Counted from the stretch's first letter, positions 27,230-58,070 are shown. The stretch: 64,000 bases of DNA from Candidatus Omnitrophota bacterium (GCA_043817155.1 JBDRHE010000059.1:97-64096); one strand, 5' to 3'. The notes: generated by a model not told the origin, from the letters alone. Translations and numbers: made by a program.

Positions 27230-27302
27230 CTCTTCTCACTCGTATCCAAATGAGCGGTTTTATATCGTCGAAAATAAGGATTTGAGATTCAAATCCGTGT
27301 CA

Positions 27303-27322
27303 TCCCCGCGAAAGCGGGGATC
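27303..27322. terminator. Strong GNRA-tetraloop hairpin ATCCCCGC-GAAA-GCGGGGAT in the 197-bp spacer between two sub-operons. Candidate terminator, processing or regulatory site. A second interrupted hairpin lies at 27365-27402.
   Basis: 8-bp perfect stem (6 GC) seen in sequence; only weak U tracts flank it. Confidence 0.35.
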
Positions 27323-27426
27323 CAGAAGTATATCTTTCTAATGCATTTGTTATTTACGCCTGGATTCCCGCTGGAGTTTAGACCGCAGCAGCGGTCCGGG
27401 AATGACAAACATTCTTATTTGGACCG

Positions 27427-31336: not shown

Positions 31337-31353
31337 CGGTCCTCCCTTACATT

Positions 31354-32865: not shown

Positions 32866-34841
32866 CCTTTTTCATACTGTTCGTTCGCATAACGTACAGC
32901 CTCAAAATTCGATGAACCATCGTTAAACATCTTCAAAAGATCTCCTATATATCCCCGCATTCTCCCGGTAGTATTTCCGTCGGCAAACGGGTCAATATTA
33001 GAACCTGAAATCGGCTTCAACTCATCGGAATATCCTTTTCTGCGACTCTCCTCGATCGCGTTCTTTACACCCTCGCGTATCTCGGCTGACTTGGAGATAA
33101 CATTCATATTGCAAAGCCCAAGAGAATAATTCTTGGAGGTACCGTGTATATCATAGTAAACAAAAAACCTTCCCAGGATGGCGGCTAAAGAAGGTATCGT
33201 CATCGAGGCGCTAAAGACCGTATCTGCGGCCAGACAGGGATATAGGGCCGATTTTTCATAAAGAACAAGGGCGCGTTTTCGCTCGCAGAAATCTCTAACC
33301 CTCTCCTTGATAATGAGTTGACTGTTTATGCTCTCCGGTCGTTTTGCCTTTATGACAAGAAAATTCGAAGAATCGCTCTCCAGCCATTTAAATAACTCTT
33401 GATAAATATCCCGAAGGTTGCCGGGCGCAATATCCGAGTCTTCCGCGGCCACATTGTCAACGAAAGCAAGAATATTCTTTTTCGGATCATCATTCAATAT
33501 GGAAGAGCGCAGCTTCTTCGCTCTTTCGAATTCCCGGGCAAACGATATATCTGCCGGAAAGCCGGTTACGACAAAAAATATACACTGGTCATGGTTATCC
33601 ATTCGCATACGCGTCAGCCTTTCACCCCAGGTAAAGAAGATATCGTGTTGGTTCTGCTGGATATCCCATTCGGGCAGGTTGCTTTGCGACCATGAAGTAC
33701 CTAGACTTACGCCCCCTGACCGGTTAAGGGCAATGGTCGCAAACTGTGTCTTTGCGTCATCGGCATTCATCGTCCAGAGCACTTTTGTCCCCTTGATCCG
33801 AAAGAGGGCTTCGAAAAAGCTCACATAGCTTAAGATGTTCATTAAATACTTTGACATCCAGCGATGGATCCCCCCGGGCCTCATCAGCCCACGATAAATC
33901 CATACATTCCTCGCAAAGTAGTTTATGAAATACGCCCAGGCCAGCATGATCTCCCGGCACTTACTGCCGTAAAAAGGGTTGAAACTGTACTCCAGGGCGC
34001 AGTCTGAACGTTCCGCGTAAAAAACCTTAGCCGCCTTAGGTAAACTGGGAAGATAAAGCGAAAGGGTCTGGTCCCTTAAGTAGCACGCTTCTTTAGCGCC
34101 CCATGGAAGACAATTGCATAATTCTGTCGCATAGCGGTTAAAGACCAATGCGCATATCCTTTGTCTCTTCACCGTTTTCCCCGCGCGTAAGAAGAAGGAG
34201 GCTATCTTGCATATAATCGAATTAAGAATAAGCATGGTAATCCTGGCTAATTCACGTATATGTGAACATTTCTCTCTCAACATCGCCTTATCCGCATAGA
34301 AGTTCTTGCGAGGCAAGAGCCTTCCCTTTCCAAATGACCTATAAAAAAACGGCTTCAGACTACGTTCCTTATAAAGATCCAGGACGATATCCCGGAACAA
34401 CGTATTTTTTAATAAAACGGCTTCTATTTCGCCTACGTGTAAAAAAGTAGACGTAATTGCTGTGGCAAACTGTATTGGAAAGTAGAGCTCCCTACCTCCA
34501 TATTTACCAAAGATCGCGGATAATCTTGCGCGTTCATACCCTGTAACACCGTGGAAGGTCCTTAATATATTAGAAAAAAAACTATCCCTGATACGCTTAA
34601 TACCGTTCATCATCAATTTCTGAAATTCCGCGTAAGACTGGACCCTGTCCCCAAAAGAACGCCTGTATTCGATCTGCTCAAAGGACCAGCCCAGCATGTT
34701 CAGTAATTTCATAACGAAACGAATTAAAAATGCTCTGTTTTCATGAAAGTAATATATTCTGCGAACGGGGCGAAACTTTGTAAGCGCCGCAATAAGGCTA
34801 AACATGTTGATCGCGTCAATTATTAGTACGGGCCCGGTCAT
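32808..34841 (-). CDS. Large hypothetical protein (677 aa), candidate novel transferase
   Basis: No recognised motif; possibly distantly related to the 22085..24046 product. Confidence 0.3.
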   Translation of the reverse strand: MTGPVLIIDAINMFSLIAALTKFRPVRRIYYFHENRAFLIRFVMKLLNMLGWSFEQIEYRRSFGDRVQSYAEFQKLMMNGIKRIRDSFFSNILRTFHGVTGYERARLSAIFGKYGGRELYFPIQFATAITSTFLHVGEIEAVLLKNTLFRDIVLDLYKERSLKPFFYRSFGKGRLLPRKNFYADKAMLREKCSHIRELARITMLILNSIICKIASFFLRAGKTVKRQRICALVFNRYATELCNCLPWGAKEACYLRDQTLSLYLPSLPKAAKVFYAERSDCALEYSFNPFYGSKCREIMLAWAYFINYFARNVWIYRGLMRPGGIHRWMSKYLMNILSYVSFFEALFRIKGTKVLWTMNADDAKTQFATIALNRSGGVSLGTSWSQSNLPEWDIQQNQHDIFFTWGERLTRMRMDNHDQCIFFVVTGFPADISFAREFERAKKLRSSILNDDPKKNILAFVDNVAAEDSDIAPGNLRDIYQELFKWLESDSSNFLVIKAKRPESINSQLIIKERVRDFCERKRALVLYEKSALYPCLAADTVFSASMTIPSLAAILGRFFVYYDIHGTSKNYSLGLCNMNVISKSAEIREGVKNAIEESRRKGYSDELKPISGSNIDPFADGNTTGRMRGYIGDLLKMFNDGSSNFEAVRYANEQYEKGWGIDTIIEGSLSFGGRRT

Positions 34842-34853: not shown

Positions 34854-35852
34854 TTATGATAGTCTGTGATTCGCGGTACAGGTGTTACATATTAAATCGG
34901 AAAAATCCAGCTTCTTATGCCTCGCTCTCAGAAGGCTCAGTTTCTCGCAGTGCCACAATTCCATAAGGCTACTGTCGTATACGTTTCCTATTTTTAGCGA
35001 ACCGTTATAATCGTTACAGCAGACCGTTACCTCCCCGTTCCAAAAGACAGACAGCCTTTGCCACATCTCGGAGCACGGCTTCTTTGGGAAAGAGCTGTAA
35101 TCGACCATAGATTCGGCCAGGATCTTCCTGTCACCGCTGGCGGCATTTACGTTAGTCACTGAAATAAAATCTACTTTATCTTTAAATCTATTGACAAAAG
35201 CCGGGATATATTTTGAGTTACTCTTCATCATCATAAACTGCAAAGTGAGAAGCGGTTTATGCCCTATGGGCTTAAGGGCAATAAAATCTTCCACGCTCTT
35301 CATGGTCGCCTCGAATTCTGCGCCCTTTCGCGTACGCTCATATGCCTCCCTCATGCCGCCTTCTATGGAAAAGGTGATTCTATCGAGCCCCGATGTAAGC
35401 AGCCTTTGGGCATTTCTACCCGTTAAAAGGGTTGCATTGGAATTAAACTGTGTATAGATATTCTGTCGTTTCGCGTAATCCACCATTTTGAATAAATCCC
35501 TGTGCAAAAAAGATTCGCCCCAGAGATTCAGTTTAACGGAACATACGCCAAGCTCGGCGCACTGGTCTATTATCCTTTTAAAAAGCGCATAGTCCATAAA
35601 ACCCACGCTGCGTGTCATCATGTTACGTTCGCACATGGGGCACTTAAGATTACAGGCATTTGTAAGTTCGATGTCAACCTGAAGAGGGGCATTGCTTTCG
35701 CAAAGGGAACTGCCGTAGTCTTCCCAGTCCTTCCTGAATCGCTTATAACGTTCGTCCTCCGGGAAAGCGTTTGCGCAGATCACCTGGAAACATCTATTAT
35801 ACTTTTTTCCGTCCGCCATATGCTTCTTTCCCTGTGTTCCCATTCTTGACAA
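34854..35852 (-). CDS. Radical SAM / SPASM-domain enzyme
   Basis: NACNLKCPMCERN; C-terminal CSEMWQRLSVFWNGEVTVCCNDYNG...CNTC; true start may be the internal MADGKK. Confidence 0.8.
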   Translation of the reverse strand: MSRMGTQGKKHMADGKKYNRCFQVICANAFPEDERYKRFRKDWEDYGSSLCESNAPLQVDIELTNACNLKCPMCERNMMTRSVGFMDYALFKRIIDQCAELGVCSVKLNLWGESFLHRDLFKMVDYAKRQNIYTQFNSNATLLTGRNAQRLLTSGLDRITFSIEGGMREAYERTRKGAEFEATMKSVEDFIALKPIGHKPLLTLQFMMMKSNSKYIPAFVNRFKDKVDFISVTNVNAASGDRKILAESMVDYSSFPKKPCSEMWQRLSVFWNGEVTVCCNDYNGSLKIGNVYDSSLMELWHCEKLSLLRARHKKLDFSDLICNTCTANHRLS

Positions 35853-37668
35853 TCAAATTGTCGTTCAAAATAAGTCCGTCCAGATCTGTTTTGAGAAATA
35901 CTCCCGTAGCATCCTCGGCCGTACGCACAATCGGGTATCCGTGAAGATTAAAACTCGTATTTACGAGCGCGTAGACACCGGTAATTTTTCCAAATTCAAA
36001 TATGAGATCATAATAGAGCGGGTTCTCCCGGCGTGACAATATCTGAGGCCGTACCGTATTGTCGTAAGGATGCTTGGCGGCCTGCAAAGCTCTCATGCCA
36101 AGAGCGCTTGTAGGGAACGCAACCGTCATATAAGGAGAAGGGATGATCTTATTGGACTTTTCTATATATCGGCCCTCATATCCCTTCAATATCACAGGCG
36201 CAAAAGGCATCCAGAAATCCCTGAACTTGATCTTGTCGTTGATCTTCTTTACGTTGTTAAAACACGCCGGATTCGCCAGGATAGACCTGTTGCCGAGAGC
36301 TCTGGATCCGAACTCCATCCCGTAAGTAGCCCGGGCTATAACCATATCTTTTTTCAAAAATGACGCTATTCTCTTAGCGGAGACTTTTGGATAGACAGTG
36401 TAACGACGCGGATCCCGGAAGTGCCTGCTTATCGCATCCTGACACTCTCTCTCGGTAATCTCATATCCCAGATATATCGTGGGGAAGATATCTTTTTTCC
36501 TATCGAAACGACCGTCGTATCTCGAAGCTGTGTGCAAACAGGCGCCTATGCTTGTGGATTCGTCCCCCGGCGAAGGCGAGACGTAGAAATTTTTCACTTC
36601 CTCGGTCCTTCCTATCTCCATATTTGTCTTAACATTCATTGCCGCTCCCCCGCCATAGAAAAGAGAATCCCTCCCGTATTTTCGCAAGATACGCTTTACC
36701 ATAGTGGTAACAAAGGATTCAAAATATAGCTGTATACCGGCCGCTACCTCATCAAATCTGTATCTTTCGAGGATGTCCCTGAAATGAAAATAGCAGTCCC
36801 TCGGCCTGGAATTCGATCTCAATTTCAGATTACGGTCTATCCACAGGGCCTCTTTATATACTTTAAAGACCTCTTCTTTGGCCTTGTCATTTTTGCAGTA
36901 AGGCGCAAGTCCCATAACCTTATACTCGTGTTCCAGCGGCTTCATCCCCAAAAGAAGCGTACAGTATTTATAAAAACGCGCAATATTCAACGAAGAATAA
37001 TGACGCAGGCACTTTATATCATTGCCGGTCCCTATTTCACCGATCATGCAATTCCTGCCGTCACCAAAGGCATCCAGCGTAAGAATAAGATTTTTACTGC
37101 CGCGGTTTCGTATACGCGCAGGCGCCGCCCAGTACGCGTACGCCGCGTGCGCCATATGATGATCGCAGAAAAGGATATTTGCGTGGTATCCAAAATGCGT
37201 ACAGAACTGTTCTTTACGCAACGATTGGTAGAAAGGAACCACATTCCTGTTTCCCCGGGAAGAATCTCTGGCATTTGCGATCTTATAATGTTTTTTACTG
37301 TATCTTTTCAAAATTTTGTCGGTCAAATTTTTTTCTATGCGCTTGGCGAAAAAGTTGCTTTTCCTTCCACCGTACAACACGGGACGCCAATACTTATACT
37401 GCTCCTCTATGTAATCATTCACGGTAAACCTGTGGGTGAAGGAATTGATCCAGAACGGATCGTGATTCACGGTAGAAAAAACGACGTAATCCAGATCTCT
37501 GACTTTTATATCCATACTTTGAAGACAATGCTCTATCGCCCTTTTCGGAAACCCCGACTGGTTTTTCTCTCTGGTAAACCTTTCCTCCTGCGCGGCATAG
37601 ACTATGCGGGAATCCCTGTAAAGGCAGCAGGAGGCATTGTGGTCATCGTATATACCGAGAATTATCAT
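35797..37668 (-). CDS. Carbamoyltransferase, NodU/CmcH family
   Basis: N-terminal ILGIYDDHNASCCLYRDSRIVYAAQEERFTREK matches the NodU/CmcH signature; ~620 aa two-domain size. Confidence 0.8.
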   Translation of the reverse strand: MIILGIYDDHNASCCLYRDSRIVYAAQEERFTREKNQSGFPKRAIEHCLQSMDIKVRDLDYVVFSTVNHDPFWINSFTHRFTVNDYIEEQYKYWRPVLYGGRKSNFFAKRIEKNLTDKILKRYSKKHYKIANARDSSRGNRNVVPFYQSLRKEQFCTHFGYHANILFCDHHMAHAAYAYWAAPARIRNRGSKNLILTLDAFGDGRNCMIGEIGTGNDIKCLRHYSSLNIARFYKYCTLLLGMKPLEHEYKVMGLAPYCKNDKAKEEVFKVYKEALWIDRNLKLRSNSRPRDCYFHFRDILERYRFDEVAAGIQLYFESFVTTMVKRILRKYGRDSLFYGGGAAMNVKTNMEIGRTEEVKNFYVSPSPGDESTSIGACLHTASRYDGRFDRKKDIFPTIYLGYEITERECQDAISRHFRDPRRYTVYPKVSAKRIASFLKKDMVIARATYGMEFGSRALGNRSILANPACFNNVKKINDKIKFRDFWMPFAPVILKGYEGRYIEKSNKIIPSPYMTVAFPTSALGMRALQAAKHPYDNTVRPQILSRRENPLYYDLIFEFGKITGVYALVNTSFNLHGYPIVRTAEDATGVFLKTDLDGLILNDNLIVKNGNTGKEAYGGRKKV

Positions 37669-38303
37669 CTCTTAACCGCGCCCCTTTCAGTCCTTAAGTT
37701 TTTACGCCTTACCATTTTGGCTTTTTTGAAATCTGACGCTGTGTCGATGTCCACAGAAACTTCGTTATCCATAGCGTAATACGCGATCTTTTTCAGGTTA
37801 AATGTTTTTTTCTCTAGCAACTTATCCGATTTTATGATATAGATGGCGCCGTTCGGAGCGTAAGCAAGGCGCCTGTCGGACTTTGCAACACTTATTAAAG
37901 AGTCCACCTTCTTCTTAAAAAAAAGTTTTAGGGCGCGGTCGATATCCGTTGCCGCTCTGAGAGGCGAAGTAGGCTGTAAGAGAATAACTGCGTCGAAATT
38001 CTGCATCTTTTTCCTGAAACGATCTGCCACGTACGCCGCGACCTCTGTGGCGCTTACCGAATCGCCGCAGAGTCTCTTAGGTCGCATAAAAGGCACTGAA
38101 GCCCCGTATCTTTTCGCGATAGCAGAAATTCTCTTACAATCCGTACTAACTACCACTCTATCGAGAAATTTACTCTTTTTCGCCTCCAGGATAGTCCATA
38201 TTACAAGCGGTTTCCCGAAAAAAAGTTTTAGATTCTTTTTCGGCAAGCGCCTGCTTCTACCCTTAGCGGGAATAACGCCCAGTATTGAATTGTTTTTATA
38301 CAC
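37665..38303 (-). CDS. Acylneuraminate cytidylyltransferase family
   Basis: ILGVIPAKGRSRRLPKKNLKLFFGKPLVIWTI P-loop region. Confidence 0.7.
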   Translation of the reverse strand: MYKNNSILGVIPAKGRSRRLPKKNLKLFFGKPLVIWTILEAKKSKFLDRVVVSTDCKRISAIAKRYGASVPFMRPKRLCGDSVSATEVAAYVADRFRKKMQNFDAVILLQPTSPLRAATDIDRALKLFFKKKVDSLISVAKSDRRLAYAPNGAIYIIKSDKLLEKKTFNLKKIAYYAMDNEVSVDIDTASDFKKAKMVRRKNLRTERGAVKR

Positions 38304-38334: not shown

Positions 38335-39399
38335 TTACATCAGCTTCTCTGTATGCTTCTTATATTCTTCCCATTGCCCTATATCGGAATAAGACTTCTG
38401 TGTCACGGGATAAACGCCGACATTCTCCTTCTCTGCCAGTAGAAGCTGTATTAATTCCGTCATGTCAAAATGTCTATCTTCCGGTATATACGAGAGAACT
38501 TCCCTGGACACCAAATACACACCTGTGTTGACGGTAAAGTCCAATTCCGGTTTTTCACGTATCTCCAGCATCCTGCCGTCTTTTTCAAAATTGACAATGC
38601 CATATGGAATTCTGTGGTGCTGAAGCGAGCCGACAACGGTCAGCATATTGCGCCTCTGGTGATGAAAGCGTAAAAGATCAACGTAATCTGCCTCAACAAT
38701 GATATCGCAATTGGAAACAATGAACGTATCTCCCACGGAAGCCGGTAATAGCCTGAGGCTTCCGGCGGTCCCCAGGAACTTCTTTTCCCAAATGTAGTGA
38801 ATTTTATAATTCTTTTCGATGCTATTGAAGTAGGTCTTTATCATCTCGCCTTTATAGTTCAGGGTGACATAAAAGTCCTTTATACCAAACCTGCCGAACC
38901 TATCCATTATCACCTCTATTACCGGCGTCTCCCCTATGGGTATGAGGGGTTTGGGAAGTATCCTTGTAAACGGACCAAGCCTCTCACCGATTCCGCCGGC
39001 CATTATGACAACGGGTACTTCTACATCTCCGTAAGCCATATTTTTGTCCCTGAATACGTCACTCCAGCACAAAATGTCCACAACCTTTCTTTCGCTCCCG
39101 GTAACTACCGGAACCACCTCAACCATATTTTCCGCCATTAGTTTTTTCACACCGAAGATACTGTATTTTTTTTGGGTGACGAAAACCGGCTTCCTGTTGA
39201 AACAATCGGTGATCCGGTCTTCGAAAGCTGCATTCTTTAACAACTTTCTTCTTATGTCCCCGTCCGAAAGGGATCCTATTAATGAACCGCCTTTGTTGCA
39301 TACAAAAAGAACTTTAAGCCCTGCTTCGTCGATTTTCTTCAGAGCCTCTTTTATGGTCGCTTTAGATGAGATCGATATCTTACTTATTATTTTTTTCAT
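38335..39399 (-). CDS. CBS-domain pair + sugar-1-phosphate nucleotidyltransferase (PtmE-like architecture)
   Basis: N-terminal CBS-like region; VVIMAGGIGERLGPFTRILPKPLIPIG nucleotidyltransferase motif. Confidence 0.7.
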   Translation of the reverse strand: MKKIISKISISSKATIKEALKKIDEAGLKVLFVCNKGGSLIGSLSDGDIRRKLLKNAAFEDRITDCFNRKPVFVTQKKYSIFGVKKLMAENMVEVVPVVTGSERKVVDILCWSDVFRDKNMAYGDVEVPVVIMAGGIGERLGPFTRILPKPLIPIGETPVIEVIMDRFGRFGIKDFYVTLNYKGEMIKTYFNSIEKNYKIHYIWEKKFLGTAGSLRLLPASVGDTFIVSNCDIIVEADYVDLLRFHHQRRNMLTVVGSLQHHRIPYGIVNFEKDGRMLEIREKPELDFTVNTGVYLVSREVLSYIPEDRHFDMTELIQLLLAEKENVGVYPVTQKSYSDIGQWEEYKKHTEKLM

Positions 39400-40594
39400 A
39401 GATCGCTCTCTTTCTGGGAGTGCTTTCTGATATTATAGTTTGATCGCATGGGCTTATTACCATGTTCCCCCATTTCATTTTGTAGGTATCTCCGGCATAC
39501 CGAATGGCCTGGTCTCTTTCTTTGCTATTATCAAACCCCTCCAGCAAACAATTTATAAAGTTGCCCATCCTCTCTCCTCCTCTGCCATCTCGGTAAGAGT
39601 CCAATTTGTCGGCATACGAAGACCAATCACCCAGGCGCGGATGATTGTTTGAATTCTCTTTATAGCTTTTTAACGTATTCATGAGCTCGCCTAAATCGTT
39701 AAAAATGAGCCTTCCGTATCCCCATTTATAGTATTTATGACCATTGAAGTTTGCGGGATCATAATGAACCCCTCTCTGCCCGGCAATTGCTACCTCTGCG
39801 ATAGCCGAAGCAATACCTATTCCCACAGTCATATCCGTACCGAACGAAACGCCGGAAGGCAAATAACCGACCATATCCTCGATCTTTTTGCACCTTCCGG
39901 TTCCGAGTGCCCTCTCAAGCAGGGGAAGAACGGAAGACAGGCTGTCCAGGATAAGATTGTTCTTAGATTTTATTATTAACCCAATGTCATCGTCTTGAAA
40001 TAACCACTCAAAAAATGCTTTATACAGCATCTCCACCGCGCCCTTGGCGATAGGGGTATGTGAGCTACATGCGTTATCAAAGAGGCTTATTATAAAATTC
40101 GCGCCTTTGTCTCTTAAAGCCTTGGAAATTTGCAATGACGATTCTACATTCTCTTCGGAGAATATGTCGATTGGATACCCGCATATAACGAATTTTTCAA
40201 TTCTGTCATGATTTACCTTGAAATAATCGAAATAATCTTTGTTCCAAATAAACATTATATGTTTTGGATGAAAACCGATATCAAAAAGATGGATTGGCGA
40301 TAGCTCCGATCGTTGTTTTCCTACAAGGACACCATTTTTATCCATGTCAAACGCTATGGCCTGGGCTATGTTTTCCGGTGACCCCTCTTCGGTTATATAA
40401 TGAACGCTGATATTAAAATGGTCGTAAAAAGAACGCCAGTAATAAACGCGTTCCGATAGAATATCACCCATTTTTACTATCCACTTTTCTGTAGGCCTTT
40501 CTGTTTTGTCTGCTTTTAAGGTCATGGCCTTCAAAATTTTAGGTGCTTGCCAGTAATGGCAATCTGTGCCGTTTTCAATGATACCTTGCTCCAA
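39380..40594 (-). CDS. Hypothetical protein (404 aa)
   Basis: No recognised motif. Confidence 0.3.
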   Translation of the reverse strand: MEQGIIENGTDCHYWQAPKILKAMTLKADKTERPTEKWIVKMGDILSERVYYWRSFYDHFNISVHYITEEGSPENIAQAIAFDMDKNGVLVGKQRSELSPIHLFDIGFHPKHIMFIWNKDYFDYFKVNHDRIEKFVICGYPIDIFSEENVESSLQISKALRDKGANFIISLFDNACSSHTPIAKGAVEMLYKAFFEWLFQDDDIGLIIKSKNNLILDSLSSVLPLLERALGTGRCKKIEDMVGYLPSGVSFGTDMTVGIGIASAIAEVAIAGQRGVHYDPANFNGHKYYKWGYGRLIFNDLGELMNTLKSYKENSNNHPRLGDWSSYADKLDSYRDGRGGERMGNFINCLLEGFDNSKERDQAIRYAGDTYKMKWGNMVISPCDQTIISESTPRKRAIYEKNNK

Positions 40595-40647
40595 AACTAC
40601 CCATCTAAAACCTTTGTCCTCTATGTCACGTATGACTTCTTTGCGTA

Positions 40648-41334
40648 TTACGAGGACCTTTCTTCCCCTATCAGCGTCATCGGCCGTATAACCCCTTTGG
40701 TAACATACGGAGTATTGTAACGCTTATCGAAATAAATCAGAACTTTTTCGGGTTTTATACCACTTTTTGCGTACCAGCACAGGTCGTTCCGTCTTGACGC
40801 GTCTAGACCCTCGGCGTAATGACAAGCAATAGCGTTCCGCGGTCTATCCTCCGCGGGCAGACAGTAATTCTTCTTGGTATCAAACAACCTGCGCTTAATA
40901 AGAACGACAAATTTCCTTAAGTGGTCACGGACTTTTTTTTTCAATAAATGGGCATGAGCTACATAATAAACCGCCCGGTTGTGCATAACTAATGGCACAT
41001 CTTCGAAAGACCAGCAGTTTTCTAACTCCGGCAATATACCTTCTCTCGGTATTGATACTGACTGCTCCCTCAAAGGTATATGCTTACCGGCGCGCCTATA
41101 CCATTGTATAACACATGCCTGGCGCACAAACGGAAATATCTCCTTTTTTATGGAGTATTGAAAATACAGCATGACCCTTTGGCTGGGCATCTTTTCAGCC
41201 ACTTCTTTATACGCATGCGAAGATGTAATGATATCCGATATGCGCAGTACATAGTCGAATGTTATGCGCTCGACTTCGTATCGAAGCGCAACACCTTCTT
41301 TGCATTTCATTTCTCCAAGATCATACTTTAACAT
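40648..41334 (-). CDS. Hypothetical protein (228 aa)
   Basis: No recognised motif. Confidence 0.3.
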   Translation of the reverse strand: MLKYDLGEMKCKEGVALRYEVERITFDYVLRISDIITSSHAYKEVAEKMPSQRVMLYFQYSIKKEIFPFVRQACVIQWYRRAGKHIPLREQSVSIPREGILPELENCWSFEDVPLVMHNRAVYYVAHAHLLKKKVRDHLRKFVVLIKRRLFDTKKNYCLPAEDRPRNAIACHYAEGLDASRRNDLCWYAKSGIKPEKVLIYFDKRYNTPYVTKGVIRPMTLIGEERSS

Positions 41335-42349
41335 TCAAGCTTTCCTTTTTTATTCCGGTCAGAGACGGGTAGGCTTCGACCCCTTCACCCGTTTTTTGCC
41401 AGTGATCATATCGCTCCTTTAACAACCCGTTCTCGAGGAGGATCTCATCCAGCCTTTCCCGGAAGGACCTTCTTATCTTAATCCCCGATAACTCATATCC
41501 AAAATGTTGCATAACTTTGTTGTTAACCAATTCGGCAAAGAATATTTCAAAAGGGTCTGCGCTCTTCTTCCATCTTCCGGCAGGGGCGCTGGATACAGTG
41601 TTCATTTTTTTATTAAAAGACGAGTCGCCGGTCCACCGGCGCCCCTGTCTATCCTTAAACTGCTTTACATCCAGCATAGCAGGCTCAAACTTTATCCTTA
41701 AAAATTTACAGAGTCTTTTTGCCTCGGTAAGTGGATTGTCGACAAAATTCTCATATTTCAGGATGTAATAGTTGTCTGGGTCAAGTGTCTCTCTGTACTC
41801 AACAGCCTTTTGGAATGAATGCTGTGAACAAAATACTGAATCAAGATAAGAATATCCTGGTTCGTACGTCATTTCTCTATAGCTACACAACACATCTCGC
41901 GGGTCCCTGAGAACATGAATCACTTTTCCCGAAGGAAACATCTGTAAAAAATTCGGGATCTGCCCCCAGCAAACATTCGTTTTTTCTCCCCATCCGGTTA
42001 CTATCTTCGCACAATCAGATGCCAGGGCTTTCATCACAATATCATAGATGTGCTTGTATTCGATTTTTTTGAGCTTCCGTATTTCGCTTATGGCTTTATC
42101 GAGATTAAATTCCATTTTCCATCTTTTTAATATGCGATCGTGGATTTCTTGTACAAGTCTCATAGCTTGATCGGCATCCCTTATCGGCTCGTATTTGCCG
42201 TAAGAAAACCTCATAAAATGGACGGAATCATATGTGACCCAAAGCTTAGAATGATTGTTAAGCATGCGACTGACAAGGGTTGTGCCGGAACGATATATGC
42301 CGGTAATAAATATTCTTGTTTCAAAACCAGAGATCATCTGTCGCCTCAT
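41321..42349 (-). CDS. Sulfotransferase (PAPS-dependent)
   Basis: 5'-PSB-like IFITGIYRSGTTLVSRML and 3'-PB-like VIHVLRDPRDVLCSY motifs. Confidence 0.75.
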   Translation of the reverse strand: MRRQMISGFETRIFITGIYRSGTTLVSRMLNNHSKLWVTYDSVHFMRFSYGKYEPIRDADQAMRLVQEIHDRILKRWKMEFNLDKAISEIRKLKKIEYKHIYDIVMKALASDCAKIVTGWGEKTNVCWGQIPNFLQMFPSGKVIHVLRDPRDVLCSYREMTYEPGYSYLDSVFCSQHSFQKAVEYRETLDPDNYYILKYENFVDNPLTEAKRLCKFLRIKFEPAMLDVKQFKDRQGRRWTGDSSFNKKMNTVSSAPAGRWKKSADPFEIFFAELVNNKVMQHFGYELSGIKIRRSFRERLDEILLENGLLKERYDHWQKTGEGVEAYPSLTGIKKESLNVKV

Positions 42350-43686
42350 TTTTTCGGTTTCACAATTTTAACGAATAGACTACCGTACCTGTCATTTGCA
42401 GCCACACCGATTGTGTCAATATCATCGGCATGTATCGAGTCATAATCAAAGGTGTATGACCATTTATCCAAAGAAGTGTCAAAATCAAAATTGTCGTGAA
42501 TAAAGCGACCCGTCTTCGTTTTTACAGAGAGGAAAGGTTGTGGGCCAAAAACTTTTCCCTCTACCGTTTCTACTTCCAGAAATGCCCTTTCGGCACTATC
42601 TTTAAAAGATACTTTAAGCTCAAGGGGTTCAAAGCTATTTCCGTCGCAATAAATCGCGGATCTAAACGCATCTACTGCTTCGCAAAATTTGAATTTGACA
42701 TCGGGATATCTTTTGCTTACATGACTGATTATATCTCTTGCAAAATCAACTTCATACGCCATATTGCGAAAATCATGGTTGGCGATACCCATGATCGTCG
42801 GTTTTCCGTCGCGGGCTCTTAAGAAGGCTTTTTCGACTTCATCAGGCGTAAGCTCCCTGCCCCTGGTTTTTATATCGAGGCATCTGCATATCCACCGCCT
42901 GCAGTTACCGGGAATTTGATAATTATCGTGGTTTGGTTGGTAAATAGACCAGTCATCCGGCGCCAACCTCCAGTCGCCGGACCGGCCGCCGGCTATGTCA
43001 ATTTGGTTCTCATGAACATCGTTCTCTTCCCGATATGCCCAGTTACTTGCGTCAAAGGGTACCCACTGTTCCAGGAATAGATGGCTGTCCGGCCGCTCTG
43101 TTTGAAAGCCTGCTCGAAACGCAACCGGAAACCAATTTCGTTCAATAATTCTTCTGCAAAGAATTTCATAAAGATACGGCGAATTCACATAACTTGTAGC
43201 GCAGCGATGAGCCTCTTTATACACGGACATTGGGTGAAAATGCCAATGTATTCCGTCTTGACTCGATCCGGTTCTTTCTTTCATCTGTTTGTAGTGGTCG
43301 AATATTTTATGGAAGCCCATATCGCGCCGCCTCGGATTGTGCGCGTAATTAACGTGGTCCACACAATACCAATTATATACCCATCCGTTCCCGAATGAAT
43401 CGAGCGCCTTATTTCTGAACTCCGGACTCATGACTTTTATAAGCATTGAGTCGATCTTCCCCCACGTATCGTTATAACATAAATTTCGGCTGCTAAAAAT
43501 GCTTGCGATAACGTCCGTATTTTTTCCGAAATCGATACATTTATCCTGAATGCGTTTTAAGTTTTCCCTTGTTGGCTCCAACGTTATGCCGAACATTTCA
43601 TGCAATCGTTGAAATGTTGCCTCTAAAGACTCATATAAAGGGCCTTCCGCATCTACACAGTGAATGATATAAACGATCTTTTCCAT
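42346..43686 (-). CDS. Hypothetical protein (446 aa), possible carbohydrate-active enzyme
   Basis: No confident motif; His/Asp-rich segments (DHVNYAHNP, WHFHP). Confidence 0.3.
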   Translation of the reverse strand: MEKIVYIIHCVDAEGPLYESLEATFQRLHEMFGITLEPTRENLKRIQDKCIDFGKNTDVIASIFSSRNLCYNDTWGKIDSMLIKVMSPEFRNKALDSFGNGWVYNWYCVDHVNYAHNPRRRDMGFHKIFDHYKQMKERTGSSQDGIHWHFHPMSVYKEAHRCATSYVNSPYLYEILCRRIIERNWFPVAFRAGFQTERPDSHLFLEQWVPFDASNWAYREENDVHENQIDIAGGRSGDWRLAPDDWSIYQPNHDNYQIPGNCRRWICRCLDIKTRGRELTPDEVEKAFLRARDGKPTIMGIANHDFRNMAYEVDFARDIISHVSKRYPDVKFKFCEAVDAFRSAIYCDGNSFEPLELKVSFKDSAERAFLEVETVEGKVFGPQPFLSVKTKTGRFIHDNFDFDTSLDKWSYTFDYDSIHADDIDTIGVAANDRYGSLFVKIVKPKK

Positions 43687-43802
43687 AGCTACTTAAGAGA
43701 TCTTGTGTTAATAAACGTGTCGAATGTTCGCTTGTGACATCCTCCTCACAAAATCAGCTTCTCTCTTTCTTTGCTGTATTTTCGGCTCTTCAAACGTTAC
43801 TT

Positions 43803-45032
43803 TTACCGTGCCATATCTTCATAAACTGTTCTTCTCAATTTCCATTTGCCGTCTTTGTTTTCCCATAAATGGGGCGATCGAAATTTTTCACAAAGTTCCA
43901 AAAATTCCTCTTTCTCCATGCCGATATACTCCATTACTTCGTCAAAATACTTTATAGGAAATTCTCCGTCGAACCTCCGGACAAGGGCCTTTCCTTCCTC
44001 CCTTGTAAGGTGCTTGTTGCGGATCTCCTGGGAAGCATCATAGGTAGCCCGGCCGATACCGAACTTTATATAGGTTGCGTAATACTGCAATCCGTCTATG
44101 CGATCGTCCAGACTGTTATATTTACTGTAAGTCCCTTCTGTCCTTTCCGGGTTTGCCGCGAAACCGGTATGCTCAACGGCGTAATAATAGGACTCCTGGG
44201 GCGTCCATTTTAAGTAATAACCGAGATAGTTCACCTTGATTTCGGATCGTTCCAACTGCTTATAGTCAGCCGGCAGATAGGTCTGTATATCATTCGCTGT
44301 TAAGCCGTGCTTTTCCATTAACTCTTTAACGCTTGCGCCGGCAATGTAGATTTCATCTAAATGCCGCATTGTATAATACGATTTGCCCCTGAGAGACGTA
44401 TTGGTATCGGCAATGGGATTGCCGTATTCGGCTTCATTTTCGCCGTAAAAAACAAGCAGAATGCCGAGCCTGGTCGCGAGTTTCGGCGCCAGATTTTTTT
44501 GGCCCAGAATAAACGGTTGAAAAGGGTGTAACAGATTTCTGATAGCTAACCTGGTTAACAGAGCGTGAACCCTGCCGTTGTAATTAAAGGATATATTGTC
44601 AAAGCCGCCTACGTCGATCCAGTTTCTAAAATTCTTCCATCCGATCTCTGTGTAAATGATAGGCGGCCAGGTTACTGTAAGCGGGTGCATGCCATATTTA
44701 TATTTTAGAATATGCGCCGCGTATGCGCTGTCTTTTCCTCCGCTTCCGGGCACGATACAATCATAATTACCGTCTTTCCTTCTATATTTTTCGAGAAGTC
44801 TTAAAAGCTCTTCTTCGCGGGTTTTCCAATCAATCTCTTTCTTGCGTTCGGCAAAGCGACACGCGTCGCATACGCCTTCTTTATCAATAAAAAGTGTCGG
44901 CTTCTTCTGAGTTACCGTGTGCTTAAATTCAGGCACTGACGAGGGCCTTTGGTTCGACATAACACAGCGCTTACAAAACTTTACAACTTTCGGTAAGCCG
45001 TATTTTGCCTCGAGTTTTTGCGTTTCTGCCAT
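43803..45032 (-). CDS. N-acetyl sugar amidotransferase (WbuX/PseA/AglX-like, PP-loop ATPase)
   Basis: N-terminal Zn-ribbon CKRCVMSNQRP...CDAC; PP-loop CIVPGSGGKDS. Confidence 0.8.
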   Translation of the reverse strand: MAETQKLEAKYGLPKVVKFCKRCVMSNQRPSSVPEFKHTVTQKKPTLFIDKEGVCDACRFAERKKEIDWKTREEELLRLLEKYRRKDGNYDCIVPGSGGKDSAYAAHILKYKYGMHPLTVTWPPIIYTEIGWKNFRNWIDVGGFDNISFNYNGRVHALLTRLAIRNLLHPFQPFILGQKNLAPKLATRLGILLVFYGENEAEYGNPIADTNTSLRGKSYYTMRHLDEIYIAGASVKELMEKHGLTANDIQTYLPADYKQLERSEIKVNYLGYYLKWTPQESYYYAVEHTGFAANPERTEGTYSKYNSLDDRIDGLQYYATYIKFGIGRATYDASQEIRNKHLTREEGKALVRRFDGEFPIKYFDEVMEYIGMEKEEFLELCEKFRSPHLWENKDGKWKLRRTVYEDMAR

Positions 45033-45034
45033 CT

Positions 45035-45718
45035 CTATCTATTCTCCTTTTTTCTGATCAATTCAGCCCAATTTTGGTATATCTTAAGGCCCTGCCCGGC
45101 GCTTCTTTCCGGATGAAACTGACAGGCAAAAATATTATCACGCTCAAGACTTGAGCAATACCTGATGCCCTCATAGGATGTGTATGATAACACGCTATCA
45201 TGCGTATCCGGCGCCACAAAGTAGGAGTGCACAAAATACATGAATTCCCCATCCCGGATGCCCCTTAACAGCGAGTCCTCCCAATAATCACCCTTTTTAT
45301 CATCGGGCCTCTTTAACTTATTCCATCCCACCTGCGGCACCTTCATGCCTTTATTGGAATCCCTTCCGGAAGAAAAGTTGACAACGGAACCTTTTATTAT
45401 ATTCAGGCCCTCGTGAACACCGAACTCTTCACTTTTCGTAAGCAAAAGTTGCATCCCTAAACATATACCCATAAAAGGTCTCCCCGTACCGATAAAGTCT
45501 TTGATCGGGCCTGCCAGATCCAATTTTTTAATATTACGCATGGCAATTCCAAACGCTCCCACGCCCGGCAATATTGCCGAGTCGCTGTTTACTATACCGG
45601 CGCTATCTGAAGTAATAAAGGCGCTTAGCCCCGCGTGTTCACAGGCCCGCTTTATGCTGAACAGATTGCCCATACCGAAATCTATTATAGCAACGTTTGA
45701 CTTAGAATTTACCGGCAT
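45035..45718 (-). CDS. HisH-like class I glutamine amidotransferase (WbuY/AglY-like)
   Basis: VAIIDFGMGNLFS; GVGAFG; catalytic ICLGMQLL; FHPE. Confidence 0.85.
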   Translation of the reverse strand: MPVNSKSNVAIIDFGMGNLFSIKRACEHAGLSAFITSDSAGIVNSDSAILPGVGAFGIAMRNIKKLDLAGPIKDFIGTGRPFMGICLGMQLLLTKSEEFGVHEGLNIIKGSVVNFSSGRDSNKGMKVPQVGWNKLKRPDDKKGDYWEDSLLRGIRDGEFMYFVHSYFVAPDTHDSVLSYTSYEGIRYCSSLERDNIFACQFHPERSAGQGLKIYQNWAELIRKKENR

Positions 45719-46589
45719 AAACGTCTTTCCCCTTTAGCGCTTCCCTGCATGGTATCCCGTGTTCGGACAGGAAGAACTTTATCTCGCTTAAGTTTGTCGG
45801 TCTAATTTTAGAAAAGATACGTCCGCTCTTTGCATACTCGAGATTTCCTTCGAGAGTATAATCGCCTTCATTAATTTTTCTGCGTTTGATGAAATCGTAA
45901 TGCAGAATTGAGGCAAAGCTTACTGCGTCAGCCTTCCCGTCAATAATTACATCTTTAATGTGGCCGGTTTGGCCTGCGCCCCCACAGGCTATGACCGGGA
46001 TAGACACTGTCTCCGAGATTTTACGCGTTAACTCCAGGTCGTAACCGATCCCCGTTCCTTCGCGATCAACAGAGGTCAGCATGATCTCACCGGCGCCAAG
46101 TTCGGTAACCCGCAAGGCCCACTGGCATACATCCATTCCGGTATGCTCTCTGCCGTTGTCGGTAAAGGCCTGGTAGCTGCCATCCGGTTGCTTGATAGCC
46201 TCTATAGAAATAACGATGGTTGATGATCCGAATTCCCTTGAGGCTTCACGAATGATGTCCGGGTTATTGATAGCCGCGGTATTAAGACTTACCTTATCCG
46301 CGCCGGCACGCAAGACCTCTTTTATGTCCCGAAGAGTCCTTATCCCCCCGCCGACCGTCAGGGGTATAAAAATGTCCCTGGCTGTCTTCTCGATTATCCG
46401 ATTCAAACTGTTGCGCCCGTATAAGCTGGCGACAACATCCATATAGATAAGTTCGTCCGCTCCGGTTTCGTAATAATACTGCGCGAACTCTTCGGGTTTG
46501 CCCAGAACCCTCAGGCCTTCCAGGTGAATGCCCTTGACTAAATTGGGCCCTTTAATATCCAGACGCGGTATAATTCTTATGTATTTCAA
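45702..46589 (-). CDS. HisF-like cyclase subunit (WbuZ/AglZ-like)
   Basis: RIIPRLDIKG...DELIYMD...TVGGGIRTLRDIKEVLRAGADKVSLNTAA is the HisF (beta/alpha)8 signature. Confidence 0.85.
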   Translation of the reverse strand: MKYIRIIPRLDIKGPNLVKGIHLEGLRVLGKPEEFAQYYYETGADELIYMDVVASLYGRNSLNRIIEKTARDIFIPLTVGGGIRTLRDIKEVLRAGADKVSLNTAAINNPDIIREASREFGSSTIVISIEAIKQPDGSYQAFTDNGREHTGMDVCQWALRVTELGAGEIMLTSVDREGTGIGYDLELTRKISETVSIPVIACGGAGQTGHIKDVIIDGKADAVSFASILHYDFIKRRKINEGDYTLEGNLEYAKSGRIFSKIRPTNLSEIKFFLSEHGIPCREALKGKDVYAGKF

Positions 46590-47308
46590 AACCCGCTTTC
46601 CTTATTTAAACGTGAATCTATAACTGCTTTGGCTAACGTAAGATCTTTCCTGGTATCGATATCTACAACCGTTTCGTTTACAATCATCGCTTTAATCCTG
46701 TCGCCGTAAATCGAGTAAAGAAACCCCGCCTTATATGGAATTTCTTTTGTAAATTTTTTATAAAATTTCTGCGCTTCAAACACGAGTGTATGGCCGTCAT
46801 GAATCATAAGCTTAGGCAATGCCTGCCTTCTGTAATGCGCTTCCCTCTTCATGGGTAGTTCGCGGTCAGTAAATTCAAACATCCATTCCGGATGATACTT
46901 CTCGATTCTTTGCATACTGATGACGGCGTCATAACTCCGATTTTTTCTTAAAAAAACAATGGCATCATAAAATAATTGTGGATACCGCGTCGGAATATTT
47001 CCGTATACGAGACTGCAATATCGGTACCCGGCCCCCTCTCTCTCGATAGCATCTGCCAGTACGTCATCGATCCTGCTTGCGTCACCGCACAACTTGCTTG
47101 GCCTGCTGATGTATGGAATTTTCTTCCTTTTGCAATAACTTATTACCCGCTCAATATTTGTCGATACGACCGTTTTTACCTCCTTCCCCAGCGACAAAGA
47201 GTAATCGATAGCGTATTCGGCCGCCATTCTGCCCCTTATTCCTCTGGTGCACTTGTCTCTTAATCCCTTGCTGCCTTTTCTTGCGCACACAACTGACAAT
47301 GTTTTCAT
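46586..47308 (-). CDS. Acylneuraminate cytidylyltransferase family
   Basis: LSVVCARKGSKGLRDKCTRGIRGRMAAEYAI P-loop-like region; weaker than the other paralogs. Confidence 0.55.
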   Translation of the reverse strand: MKTLSVVCARKGSKGLRDKCTRGIRGRMAAEYAIDYSLSLGKEVKTVVSTNIERVISYCKRKKIPYISRPSKLCGDASRIDDVLADAIEREGAGYRYCSLVYGNIPTRYPQLFYDAIVFLRKNRSYDAVISMQRIEKYHPEWMFEFTDRELPMKREAHYRRQALPKLMIHDGHTLVFEAQKFYKKFTKEIPYKAGFLYSIYGDRIKAMIVNETVVDIDTRKDLTLAKAVIDSRLNKESGF

Positions 47309-47319
47309 AATAAATTCCC

Positions 47320-48780
47320 CTAAAAGATATCGATTCCGCCATGCTCGGCACGGTGCTTTAATAATGCTTCGTCCTTAAAATAATCATCAGCCATGTCTCC
47401 GAAAAGATTCGTCAACTTGGCCATGTAACTTTCCTCGGTCTCCGGTTTGATTCGCGAGCGTACCTCGGATATCATCTCTTCTCTTTTGGAAATAAGTTCG
47501 GTATCTGTAAACACATTGGTTAAATTAATAAGAAAATCTCTGGCGTCCCCCATGGACATCACAAAATCATGTATTCGGTCCTTTTTGATTCGGCCTGTTC
47601 TGAGAGCGTACTCAAAAAGTTGCGTTCCCGGGTACGGCACGGCAAACATAATGGATTTTAGTGGTATATTATTTCTTACGCAAAACTCTACGGTTTTGCG
47701 GCATGATTCAACGTCCTCTTCCGGCATCCCTATCATAAAGCTTATAGGTAACATCATCTTATATCGCCTGTTTAACACGACCGCGTTCTCCATCTGGGCT
47801 ATCGTCACGTTCTTCCCCATAGACGCGAGCATCCCTTGAGAGCCGGATTCAAATCCATAAGATATGGACACACATCCGGCGCTCTTCATCCTTCGCACAA
47901 TATCATCGTCAACAAGGTTAACGCGCCCGGTACAGGACCACAAAAGTCCCGGAACGTTTCTCTCGATCTTCTCACAGAACTCATATATGCGTTTCTTTCC
48001 CATCAAAAACTCGTCATCCTGAAAAGAGATAAAGTCCACTTTATATTGTTTCCTTAAATACACAAGCGCCTCGACTATAAAATCAGCCGAATGCGCCCTG
48101 AAATTTCTACCCCAGGGTTGATAACAAAATACGCAGTCGTATGGGCATCCCCGGCTTGAGATAAAATCTATATCCCTTCCAAGACCTACCACGGGATTGG
48201 AAAGGTAAATTTCCATCGGAAGTAAATCGTAAGCCGGCAGATCGCTTTCGATATCGAGGTCCTGCAGTAGCTCCTGTTTCCCGGAACATATTATTTCGCC
48301 GTCAATTTTAAAGTAAAACCCCTTTACATTCGTCAATTCGCTAAAGGCGCCTCCTCCGGCCAGTCCTTCGATAAGGTCAACCATAGCCTTTTCACCTTCA
48401 CCCGCGCAAACAATATCTACATTCGAATGACGCAGCAAGACCTCGGGTACCGACATTGCCACGCTGCCACCCGCGATCACTATTGCCTCCCGATTTATTG
48501 CTTTTATAATGCCGGCATACTCGACAATAACCCTGTAAACCGGTATTAGACCTCCCATAAGGACTATATCAAAAGGCATCGAATTCAAAATTGACTTTAG
48601 CTCCGTTTTTGTATAGCGATGCGCGTTAGCGTCTATAAACGTTGGAGTTATACCCGTCTTCTTTCGAATAACATTCGCCAGAATAGCCAGGCCATGAGGT
48701 ATGTGCCTCGGTTTATCGTTTAAACGTATCGGAGGATTAATAATTATTATTCTGGGTAATTTTTTATTCAGTTTTGTCAT
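47320..48780 (-). CDS. Cobalamin-binding radical SAM enzyme
   Basis: B12-like N-terminus (IVLMGGLIPVYR...VIAGGSVAMSVPE); SSRGCPYDCVFCYQPW. Confidence 0.8.
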   Translation of the reverse strand: MTKLNKKLPRIIIINPPIRLNDKPRHIPHGLAILANVIRKKTGITPTFIDANAHRYTKTELKSILNSMPFDIVLMGGLIPVYRVIVEYAGIIKAINREAIVIAGGSVAMSVPEVLLRHSNVDIVCAGEGEKAMVDLIEGLAGGGAFSELTNVKGFYFKIDGEIICSGKQELLQDLDIESDLPAYDLLPMEIYLSNPVVGLGRDIDFISSRGCPYDCVFCYQPWGRNFRAHSADFIVEALVYLRKQYKVDFISFQDDEFLMGKKRIYEFCEKIERNVPGLLWSCTGRVNLVDDDIVRRMKSAGCVSISYGFESGSQGMLASMGKNVTIAQMENAVVLNRRYKMMLPISFMIGMPEEDVESCRKTVEFCVRNNIPLKSIMFAVPYPGTQLFEYALRTGRIKKDRIHDFVMSMGDARDFLINLTNVFTDTELISKREEMISEVRSRIKPETEESYMAKLTNLFGDMADDYFKDEALLKHRAEHGGIDIF

Positions 48781-50546: not shown

Positions 50547-50570
50547 CCCTTTATCTTTCTATCTTCAAAG

Positions 50571-58057: not shown

Positions 58058-58070
58058 GCCTTACTTCCTC

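Follow-up and report, generated by a model that had tools for sequence, protein, structure and literature searches.

The 64,000-nucleotide stretch of DNA analysed here, from a 137,462-bp contig of the metagenome-assembled genome of Candidatus Omnitrophota bacterium (GCA_043817155.1 JBDRHE010000059.1:97-64096; hereafter the window), is a same-strand gene cluster that constitutes a modification island for nonulosonic acids (NulO; legionaminic/pseudaminic-type sugars), and it encodes two sulfotransferases, ST1 and ST2. As read from the sequences, ST1 is probably an active cytoplasmic enzyme that depends on 3′-phosphoadenosine 5′-phosphosulfate (PAPS), is dedicated to the NulO pathway and forms a unit with U446, the protein encoded directly upstream, and ST2 probably acts on the assembling glycan. 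This reading is carried by family membership, conserved residues, gene linkage and, in relatives, linkage to adenosine 5′-phosphosulfate (APS) kinase, all of which are observed directly. The features needed first are as follows (aa, amino acids; nt, nucleotides; 5′-PSB, 5′-phosphosulfate-binding; 3′-PB, 3′-phosphate-binding).

41321-42349, minus strand: ST1, 342-aa (first ATG) sulfotransferase in the TPST/CurM-ST-like Sulfotransfer_3 clade
42278-42292, minus strand: 5′-PSB loop of ST1, R20-S-G-T-T24 (aa 20-24)
42227-42229, minus strand: D41 of ST1, candidate catalytic base
41978-41992, minus strand: W120-G-E-K123-T motif of ST1
41882-41908, minus strand: 3′-PB motif of ST1, R148-D-P-R-D-V-L-C-S156
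42346-43686, minus strand: U446, 446 aa, directly upstream of ST1, its stop overlapping the ST1 start by 4 nt
50571-51515, minus strand: ST2, SULT-like (Sulfotransfer_1) sulfotransferase, 314 aa

By its sequence, ST1 is a PAPS-dependent sulfotransferase in which the predicted PAPS-binding residues and the equivalents of catalytic residues are intact and conserved. It is 100% identical to P0001, 'sulfotransferase [Candidatus Omnitrophota bacterium]', for which NCBI places the start at 42337, four codons later, to give 338 aa. When the open reading frames (ORFs) of the window were annotated with Pfam and NCBIfam, ST1 matched Sulfotransfer_3 (PF13469) with 95.1 bits (E=9.4e-27; gathering score, 27) over residues 13-223 and model positions 2-216 of 216, and Sulfotransfer_1 (PF00685) with 47.5 bits (E=2e-12); NCBIfam holds no model for ST1, ST2 or U446. 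The ST1 family is compact: it counts about 86 full-length homologs (33-64% identity), beyond which similarity drops sharply. PF13469 and/or PF00685 is matched by every one of 109 ST1 homologs. A search of the PDB with the ST1 family profile gave 51 distinct structures at E<0.01, all of which are named as sulfotransferases except two unnamed entries; the best matches were TPST1 (1.9e-18), then TPST2 and the ST domain of CurM (1.5e-15). With the single sequence, the closest structure was the CurM ST (4gbm; E=2.5e-10; residues 12-287). The original prediction, made from the DNA alone, had placed PAPS-type sulfotransferases within a glycan cluster on the basis of short motifs in two ORFs; both ORFs are present on the minus strand with their motifs in place, ST1 and ST2 each score above the gathering score of a Sulfotransfer_3 or Sulfotransfer_1 model, and PAPS-binding residues are conserved in both families.

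Conservation of individual residues was read from an alignment of 28 members of the ST1 family. Conservation reaches at least 90% for R20, S21, G22 and T24 of the 5′-PSB loop, the counterpart of PRSGTT in the TPST1 alignment, and for D41, G121, E122 and S156; W120, K123, R148, D149, P150 and R151 are invariant. The RDPRD core of the 3′-PB motif (aa 148-152) lies at nt 41894-41908, and when all six frames of the window were translated, the pattern [KR]SG[ST]T was seen a single time, in ST1, and R[DNH]P.D three times. K123 falls on the catalytic Lys of TPST in the alignment ('CNKDP' in TPST1). D41 is located 21 residues past R20, the same spacing as that between Arg78 and Glu99 in human TPST2, where the catalytic trio is Arg78/Glu99/Lys158 (PMC10951654), and the spacing suggests that D41 corresponds to Glu99. 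H44, which appeared as a possible catalytic His in a gapped alignment with CurM, was rejected because several members have Q, K or N at this position.

TPST1 and TPST2 are the best structural-family match of the ST1 profile, and the likeness extends to the 5′-PSB (PRSGTTL in TPST, YRSGTTL in ST1), the aligned Lys and the acidic residue at +21. However, TPSTs are anchored in the Golgi as type II membrane proteins, and their acceptor is tyrosine in acidic peptides, whereas ST1 has no membrane anchor (its 5′-PSB begins at residue 20), is encoded in a sugar-biosynthesis operon and carries Asp instead of Glu. Because ST1 lacks an N-terminal hydrophobic segment, it is likely to be a soluble cytoplasmic enzyme.

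The gene linkage of ST1 to U446 holds across phyla. In all 13 distinct loci that were selected by the sulfotransferase, a U446 homolog lies within ~0.8 kb of the ST1 homolog, and the two are directly adjacent in eight. No fewer than seven lineages are represented among the loci selected by ST1 (Omnitrophota, Desulfobacterales, Dehalococcoidia, Campylobacterota, Gammaproteobacteria, Nitrospirales, Nitrospinaceae and a contig of archaeal type with topoisomerase VI), and 185,579 reference species yielded 10 ST1 loci only, all in metagenome-assembled genomes. The neighbourhoods of ST1 homologs hold NeuB, a NeuC-like Epimerase_2, a PglD-like acetyltransferase, a DegT aminotransferase, a PtmE-like transferase and CMP-NulO synthetase. 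In a reverse test, 80 metagenomic loci were picked by U446 alone, 25 of which have at least 5 kb on each side; an ST1-like gene is found within 5 kb in 17 of the 25 and is directly adjacent in 11. Pairs of ST1-like and U446 genes lie on the same strand in 31 of 33 cases, the sulfotransferase flanking U446 on either side, and the same arrangement is present in a locus on a 6.5-Mb contig reached through a U446 homolog. Together, the two tests point to an asymmetric relation, in which ST1-type genes always occur with U446 and U446 also occurs without a sulfotransferase.

An APS kinase gene adjoins the ST/U446 module in 12 loci and was confirmed by Pfam in L038 and L048 (190-197 bits; loci are designated by L numbers). 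This linkage in relatives is the best available evidence that PAPS is the sulfo donor. In four loci, beside ST/U446 (L030:4802-5989, L046:3682-4818, L054:3595-4830 and L065:4744-5955), an APS-kinase-like domain (64-72 bits) is fused to a methyltransferase dependent on S-adenosylmethionine (SAM), and in L048:5116-6021 the strong APS kinase (190 bits) is fused to a cytidylyltransferase-like domain.

U446 belongs to a large, highly conserved family of at least 1860 homologs (E<1e-5), with at least 50% identity among the best 120. Neither Pfam nor NCBIfam assigns the family a domain, and it has no PDB relative detectable by sequence; the U446 profile likewise found no match among PDB sequences. 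The AlphaFold2 model, which is confident (pLDDT 87.9, pTM 0.89), consists of an N-terminal β/α barrel and a C-terminal β-sandwich, and the invariant residues H9, D12, E14, D110, H149, H151, D212, H304 and D305 are placed at the C-terminal end of barrel strands or immediately beyond it. With the full model, Foldseek matched the β-sandwich alone. With the N-terminal domain, the top matches were the PuuE allantoinase 3cl6 and members of the polysaccharide deacetylase family (3s6o, 1z7a; prob 0.98-1.00, TM 0.41-0.50), followed by insect chitin deacetylases and GH57/GH38 enzymes, and human NDST1 (9f6z) ranked 24th (prob 0.41, TMq 0.38). These matches suggest that U446 is, at the level of the fold, a very distant member of the superfamily of 7-stranded deacetylase/glycosidase barrels, and on this fold-level evidence only it may be a hydrolase or deacetylase of the CE4/PuuE type. 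The predicted likeness to that superfamily lies in the fold of the N-terminal domain and in the His, Asp and Glu residues at the ends of the barrel strands; the differences are that U446 has no PF01522 signal, has an extra C-terminal β-sandwich and carries motifs (HxxDxE, HWHFH, HD) other than the canonical CE4 set. A Pfam scan of 37 U446 members at E<5 gave no match to Polysacc_deac_1 (PF01522) in any of them.

Group-transfer enzymes predominate among the genes directly beside U446. For 92 U446 genes, these neighbours include 30 sulfotransferases and ~25 SAM methyltransferases of four families, besides DegT aminotransferases (8), HisF (7), CMP-NulO synthetases (6) and WbuX (4), and a NulO marker is present in 26 of 34 U446 loci of at least 10 kb. 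One family of ~260-aa SAM methyltransferases is encoded directly beside U446 in ~17 loci, with or without a sulfotransferase (for example, L003:9173-9940, L013:9195-9977 and L029:7326-8087); the window has no close copy of it beside U446.

The scheme that follows is our inference as to which acceptor is used, in what order the reactions run and what chemistry U446 performs. U446 would act first on a NulO or a nucleotide-sugar precursor to expose or create a nucleophilic group, the simplest chemistry being removal of an N-acetyl group; such de-N-acetylation would also explain the pairing of U446 with methyltransferases and its occurrence without a sulfotransferase. ST1 would then bind PAPS through the 5′-PSB loop (R20-SGTT) and the 3′-PB motif (R148...S156) and, with D41 and K123 in the roles of Glu99 and Lys158 of TPST2, transfer the sulfo group onto the position prepared by U446. 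The modified sugar would finally be activated with CMP and built into the surface glycan.

Whether ST1 forms an O- or an N-sulfate is finely balanced, and we lean somewhat towards O-sulfation, because the known bacterial carbohydrate sulfotransferases and the closest relatives of ST1 are O-sulfotransferases; the deacetylase-fold partner and the dependency pattern speak for N-sulfation of the NDST kind. In its most specific form, which we regard as possible though on the doubtful side, U446 and ST1 would be a prokaryotic two-protein counterpart of NDST, in which the 5- or 7-N-acetyl group is removed and the free amine of the NulO or its precursor is converted to an N-sulfate (sulfamate). The proposed logic is like that of NDST1, an enzyme with a deacetylase fold being coupled to a PAPS sulfotransferase; however, NDST1 is a eukaryotic Golgi enzyme in which both activities are fused and whose substrate is a GlcNAc polymer, whereas here two separate, translationally coupled genes of a NulO operon encode proteins predicted to be cytoplasmic. 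The comparison is one of analogy and not of membership, and the structural match is weak (prob 0.41). If N-sulfation were true, N-sulfated sialic-acid-like sugars would occur on the surfaces of uncultured bacteria and archaea that are widespread (Omnitrophota, Nitrospinaceae, Dehalococcoidia, Desulfobacterales and others) and could account for the unassigned 'N-linked sulfate' of NulO-rich environmental extracellular polymeric substances (EPS) (PMC10483923).

Several observations weigh against the proposal that ST1 and U446 jointly modify NulO. At the ST1 residue D41, Asp stands where TPST and the CurM ST carry Glu, and the two most distant family members have Gly. About one third of U446 loci lack a sulfotransferase. 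The fold match of U446 is weak (best E=1.5e-3, TM 0.41-0.50), U446 has no link to CE4 by sequence or profile (hhalign against the CE4 protein of L003 gave a probability of 0.3%), and canonical Polysacc_deac_1 (CE4) genes adjoin U446 in five loci, which suggests that U446 may not be the deacetylase. Within the 64-kb window, NeuB and NeuC homologs were not found, so that the link to NulO rests here on the cytidylyltransferases, a PtmE-like gene and synteny. PAPS-synthesis genes were not found in the window either (no cysC, cysD/N, sat, cysQ or PAPS reductase); the search for such genes that had been proposed with the original prediction thus failed in the window and succeeded in related loci, where APS kinase stands beside the module. 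No member of the ST1, ST2 or U446 families has been characterised, and sulfated bacterial NulO was not found in the literature searched.

It is conceivable, although rather unlikely, that ST1 is an O-sulfotransferase that acts at the level of the glycan on an ordinary sugar next to NulO, in a glycan that is finished or still lipid-linked, the adjacency to U446 reflecting shared regulation and not a common substrate. As a matter of general knowledge, nearly all characterised bacterial carbohydrate sulfotransferases O-sulfate oligo- or polysaccharides, as in the capsule cluster of Cobetia (PMC11766843). In the N-glycan of Halorubrum sp. [quoted passage not shown] However, in L004, L005, L008, L010, L011 and L016 the ST/U446 genes lie among genes for the monomer (NeuB, CMP synthetase, DegT and PtmE-like), not beside glycosyltransferases, and the coupling to U446, which is seen in 13 of 13 loci from different phyla and in which the stop codon of one gene often overlaps the start of the next, is closer than an association at the level of a regulon.

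ST2 belongs to a different family and is most simply read, from its sequence, as an active SULT-like enzyme. It is identical to P0380, named 'sulfotransferase domain-containing protein' at NCBI, and matches PF00685 with 31.7 bits (E=1.3e-7; gathering score, 22) over residues 28-287. Its family is small, with 212 representatives among 1.84 billion proteins, with 37 matches in a separate search. The key residues are K51 in PKSASS (aa 50-55, nt 51351-51368), H104 in LKFHT, R127-H-P-A-D131 in LRHPADQ (aa 126-132, nt 51120-51140) and the segment YPRGWTGKIGIWKNYFS (aa 263-279), which in the alignment with SULT2A8 corresponds to rKGITGDWKNHFT, an instance of the cytosolic SULT motif RKGxxGDWKNxFT. 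Among 30 family members, conservation of K51, R127, H128, P129 and D131 is 90% or more and the His of L-K-x-H104 is present in 26, and a YPxGWTGxxGxWxxYFS block is conserved across the family. In the 5′-PSB loop Gly is replaced by Ala and Thr-Thr by Ser-Ser, PKSxS being the family norm, and the Ser position of the 3′-PB motif is Ala in ST2 and Ala or Ser throughout the family; the two motifs are therefore family traits and not signs of decay. The original prediction had described the two motifs of ST2 as degenerate versions of those of ST1; the motifs are indeed present, but their variants are the norm of a separate SULT-like family, of which the KxH motif and the WKNYF-type C-terminal motif had gone unnoticed. 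ST2 as a degraded paralog of ST1 was rejected, the two proteins having no pairwise similarity beyond one motif.

The immediate neighbours of ST2 are the following (TMD and NBD, transmembrane and nucleotide-binding domains).

51512-52732, minus strand: TIGR04372-family glycosyltransferase (NCBIfam TIGR04372, 234 bits), its stop overlapping the ST2 start by 4 nt
48777-50546, minus strand: ABC exporter, fused TMD + NBD, MsbA/PglK-like (Pfam ABC_membrane and ABC_tran), directly downstream of ST2

The trio of TIGR04372 glycosyltransferase, ST2 and ABC exporter (48777-52732) is kept in L097:4755-9005, which belongs to another metagenome-assembled genome, and the pair of glycosyltransferase and ST2 in L099:6622-9074; the glycosyltransferase homologs that adjoin ST2 homologs there have 47% (L097) and 36% (L099) identity, and the exporter ortholog of L097 (51% identical) is placed between the glycosyltransferase and the ST2 homolog. 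Translational coupling of ST2 to the glycosyltransferase, followed by the exporter, suggests that ST2 probably sulfates the assembling glycan. As in the window, a split transketolase and a B12-radical SAM gene lie upstream of the units of L097 and L099. In another ST2-family locus, L098:2867-7438, a gene for a 1176-aa Maf-type protein (flagellin NulO glycosyltransferase) adjoins a further Sulfotransfer_3 gene, which suggests that a sulfated glycan may decorate flagellin in some organisms.

That ST2 is a degenerate, non-catalytic protein with the sulfotransferase fold, such as a subunit with a binding or scaffolding role in the glycosyltransferase/exporter machinery, seems to us quite unlikely. 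The replacement of Gly and Thr-Thr in the 5′-PSB (PKSASS), the Ala in place of the 3′-PB Ser, the modest Pfam score of 31.7 bits and the lack of any PDB match at E<0.1 in a single-sequence search would fit such a protein, but the residues that contact PAPS or serve catalysis in SULTs are kept family-wide (K51, R127/H128/P129/D131, LKxH in 26 of 30 members and GWTGxxGxWxxYFS), and the Ala/Ser replacement occurs as a family trait under clear purifying selection in conserved synteny.

It is still less likely that ST1 is an 'activating' sulfotransferase like that of CurM, whose sulfate would serve as a leaving group for U446 or another enzyme and be absent from the final glycan. The ST domains of CurM and OLS (4gbm, 4gox) belong to the same bacterial Sulfotransfer_3 clade as ST1, CurM ST being the closest structure in the single-sequence search and second in the profile search, and the tight pairing with U446, a protein of hydrolase fold, could mean two-step activation and elimination. 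However, the CurM ST is a domain within a polyketide synthase (PKS) module (ACP-ST-TE, with acyl carrier protein and thioesterase) and sulfates a β-hydroxyacyl-ACP to make a leaving group, whereas ST1 stands alone and no PKS, ACP or thioesterase is encoded in the window. The His of the CurM Glu-x-His pair (His62; H44 in ST1) is not conserved, and the family profile matches the CurM ST less well than the TPSTs, whose products are stable sulfate esters. Because U446 lacks a sulfotransferase in about one third of its loci and is then often accompanied by a methyltransferase, decoration of the sugar fits better than activation. Assignment of ST1 and ST2 to some other P-loop family, in which motifs like RSGTT would be mere look-alikes of generic P-loops, is effectively refuted by the full-length Pfam matches, the 51 sulfotransferase structures and the domain matches of 109/109 ST1 homologs.

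The preferred reading, a PAPS-dependent ST1 that modifies NulO together with U446, can be compared with known systems. The vertebrate sialate O-sulfotransferases WSCD1 and WSCD2 were the sole enzymes found for which sulfation of a nonulosonic (sialic) acid is known (PMC9304399) and would be functional analogues if ST1 O-sulfates NulO; they are, however, eukaryotic Golgi enzymes that act on sialylated glycoconjugates and are likened to ST1 by function, not by sequence. No prokaryotic counterpart of WSCD1/2 was found in the literature searched, in which sulfation of sialic acid is reported for animals only. The capsule/EPS cluster of Cobetia marina KMM 1449, which contains glycosyltransferases, an ABC exporter, one or more sulfotransferases and PAPS-synthesis genes (PMC11766843), resembles the arrangement of ST2, glycosyltransferase and ABC exporter together with the APS kinase linkage of relatives. 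The sulfotransferases of that cluster modify rhamnose and other hexoses of kps-type capsules, whereas the cluster in the window is centred on NulO, is devoid of cysDN/cysC/cysQ and has ST1 tied to the CE4-like U446. Bacterial capsules with sulfotransferase and PAPS genes, of which this is one, are better documented than was implied by the original statement that sulfated prokaryotic surface glycans are uncommon (PMC11766843).

Since both genes are already labelled as sulfotransferases at NCBI and belong to an ordinary enzyme class, their mere presence is unremarkable. What is new is the setting, namely one sulfotransferase subfamily locked to NulO biosynthesis and to the large, unannotated U446 family across uncultured phyla, often with its own APS kinase. 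The literature searched contained no paper on a NulO-tied sulfotransferase, an ST1-U446 module or the U446 family, and within NulO clusters the ST1-U446(-APS kinase) module appears to be undescribed. If the module makes sulfated sugars of the legionaminic/pseudaminic type, this would be a modification for which we found no report in prokaryotes. In granular-sludge EPS rich in NulO and sulfate, N-linked sulfate exceeds O-linked sulfate and the responsible sulfotransferases are stated to be unknown (PMC10483923); if the proposal is true, the module provides candidate genes for the sulfotransferases behind the co-occurrence of NulO and sulfate in such environmental biofilm matrices. It would also be the first functional handle on the U446 family, testable by heterologous expression.

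All 55 substantial ORFs of the window lie on the minus strand and are nearly contiguous, many with 4-nt overlaps. This co-directional array of at least 64 kb extends past the right end of the window, and its sole gaps are at 4807-5261, 27230-27426 and 43687-43802. Scans of the window for tRNAs and against Rfam gave no matches. The genes of the NulO pathway and of sugar tailoring assigned with Pfam and NCBIfam include the following.

15951-16694, 24016-25383, 25390-26133, 37665-38303 and 46586-47308, minus strand: five paralogous CMP-sugar cytidylyltransferases (Pfam CTP_transf_3)
46586-47308, minus strand: the CMP-sugar (NulO) cytidylyltransferase of these five whose ortholog (52% identical) is directly upstream of U446 in L001
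38335-39399, minus strand: CBS + nucleotidyltransferase, PtmE-like (Pfam NTP_transferase and CBS)
43803-45032, minus strand: WbuX-type N-acetyl-sugar amidotransferase (TIGR03573 WbuX, 362 bits)
45035-45718 and 45702-46589, minus strand: HisH-like and HisF-like partners of WbuX (Pfam GATase, His_biosynth)
35797-37668, minus strand: NodU/CmcH-type carbamoyltransferase
5262-6788, 16691-18319, 27427-29097, 31354-32865, 47320-48780 and 60921-62681, minus strand: six B12-binding radical SAM enzymes (Pfam/NCBIfam)
ranges including 1712-2815, 18177-20326, 34854-35852 and 57038-59303, minus strand: six further radical SAM/SPASM enzymes

The cytidylyltransferase paralog at 24016-25383 is a fusion to a GT2 glycosyltransferase, and the same fusion is present in L001. 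The PtmE-like gene is a marker typical of the legionaminic-acid route, and its orthologs adjoin NeuB in L002, L003 and L016. WbuX, HisH and HisF (43803-46589) are acetamidino-forming enzymes that often adjoin the ST1/U446 module (L002, L004, L013, L015 and L016). The carbamoyltransferase within the cluster implies carbamoylation as a further decoration of the glycan. Other modifying enzymes of the window are ~10 SAM methyltransferases (Pfam/NCBIfam), YdjC, HAD and several dehydrogenases, and assembly and export are represented by glycosyltransferases of the GT2, GT-C and TIGR04372 types and by two MsbA/PglK-like ABC exporters. The density of radical chemistry in the cluster is exceptional and presumably serves C-methylation or other tailoring of the sugars.

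Two adjacent dehydrogenase genes bear on a further suggestion of the original prediction, that an Ldh_2-family enzyme hints at sulfur chemistry.

29081-30118, minus strand: Ldh_2-family dehydrogenase (Pfam Ldh_2, E=1e-106)
30128-31390, minus strand: GFO/IDH/MocA oxidoreductase (Pfam)

The Ldh_2 ORF is real, but the hint does not stand: the ORF scores 224 bits against the L-sulfolactate dehydrogenase equivalog NF040650, for which the cutoff is 500, and 244 (cutoff 356) and 238 bits against ureidoglycolate dehydrogenase models, and it remains below every NCBIfam equivalog cutoff. Against the PDB it matches the malate dehydrogenase 1z2i with 221 bits and the sulfolactate dehydrogenase 2x06 with 177 bits. 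The reading as a sulfolactate dehydrogenase was rejected, the protein being no closer to that enzyme than to malate or ureidoglycolate dehydrogenases. Orthologs of the Ldh_2 and GFO/IDH/MocA genes are found in the Omnitrophota-type loci L001 and L002 (71-73% and 55-62% identity, respectively), and the pair is not conserved in the loci of other phyla; Ldh_2 thus belongs to the cluster, and a connection to sulfur chemistry is not supported, as nothing links the gene to it.

The gene directly downstream of ST1 is divided between two ORFs.

39380-41334, minus strand: split gene, 40648-41334 (228 aa) and 39380-40594 (404 aa); tblastn with the 615-aa proteins of L001 and L004 spans both ORFs

The halves correspond to the N- and C-terminal parts of one ~615-aa protein in L001, L002 and L004, the protein noted above as following the sulfotransferase gene in L001 and L004. 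They are separated by a 1-nt change of frame with the switch between ~40648 and 40725, probably at 'aaagggg' near 40691-40697, which may reflect a frameshift, an assembly error or a pseudogene. Its only family signal is a weak match to TIGR04417 PFTS, and the ~615-, 677-, 653- and 509-aa proteins have no usable family assignment. These unassigned proteins of 500-680 aa include 32808-34841 and 39380-40594, the C-terminal halves of which are paralogous (27% identity), as well as 22085-24046 and 10265-11794. Their weak matches (TIGR04417 PFTS, TIGR04326, NeuC and the BFO_1060 glycosyltransferase) hint at surface-carbohydrate enzymes of a GT-B-like type, possibly NulO transferases.

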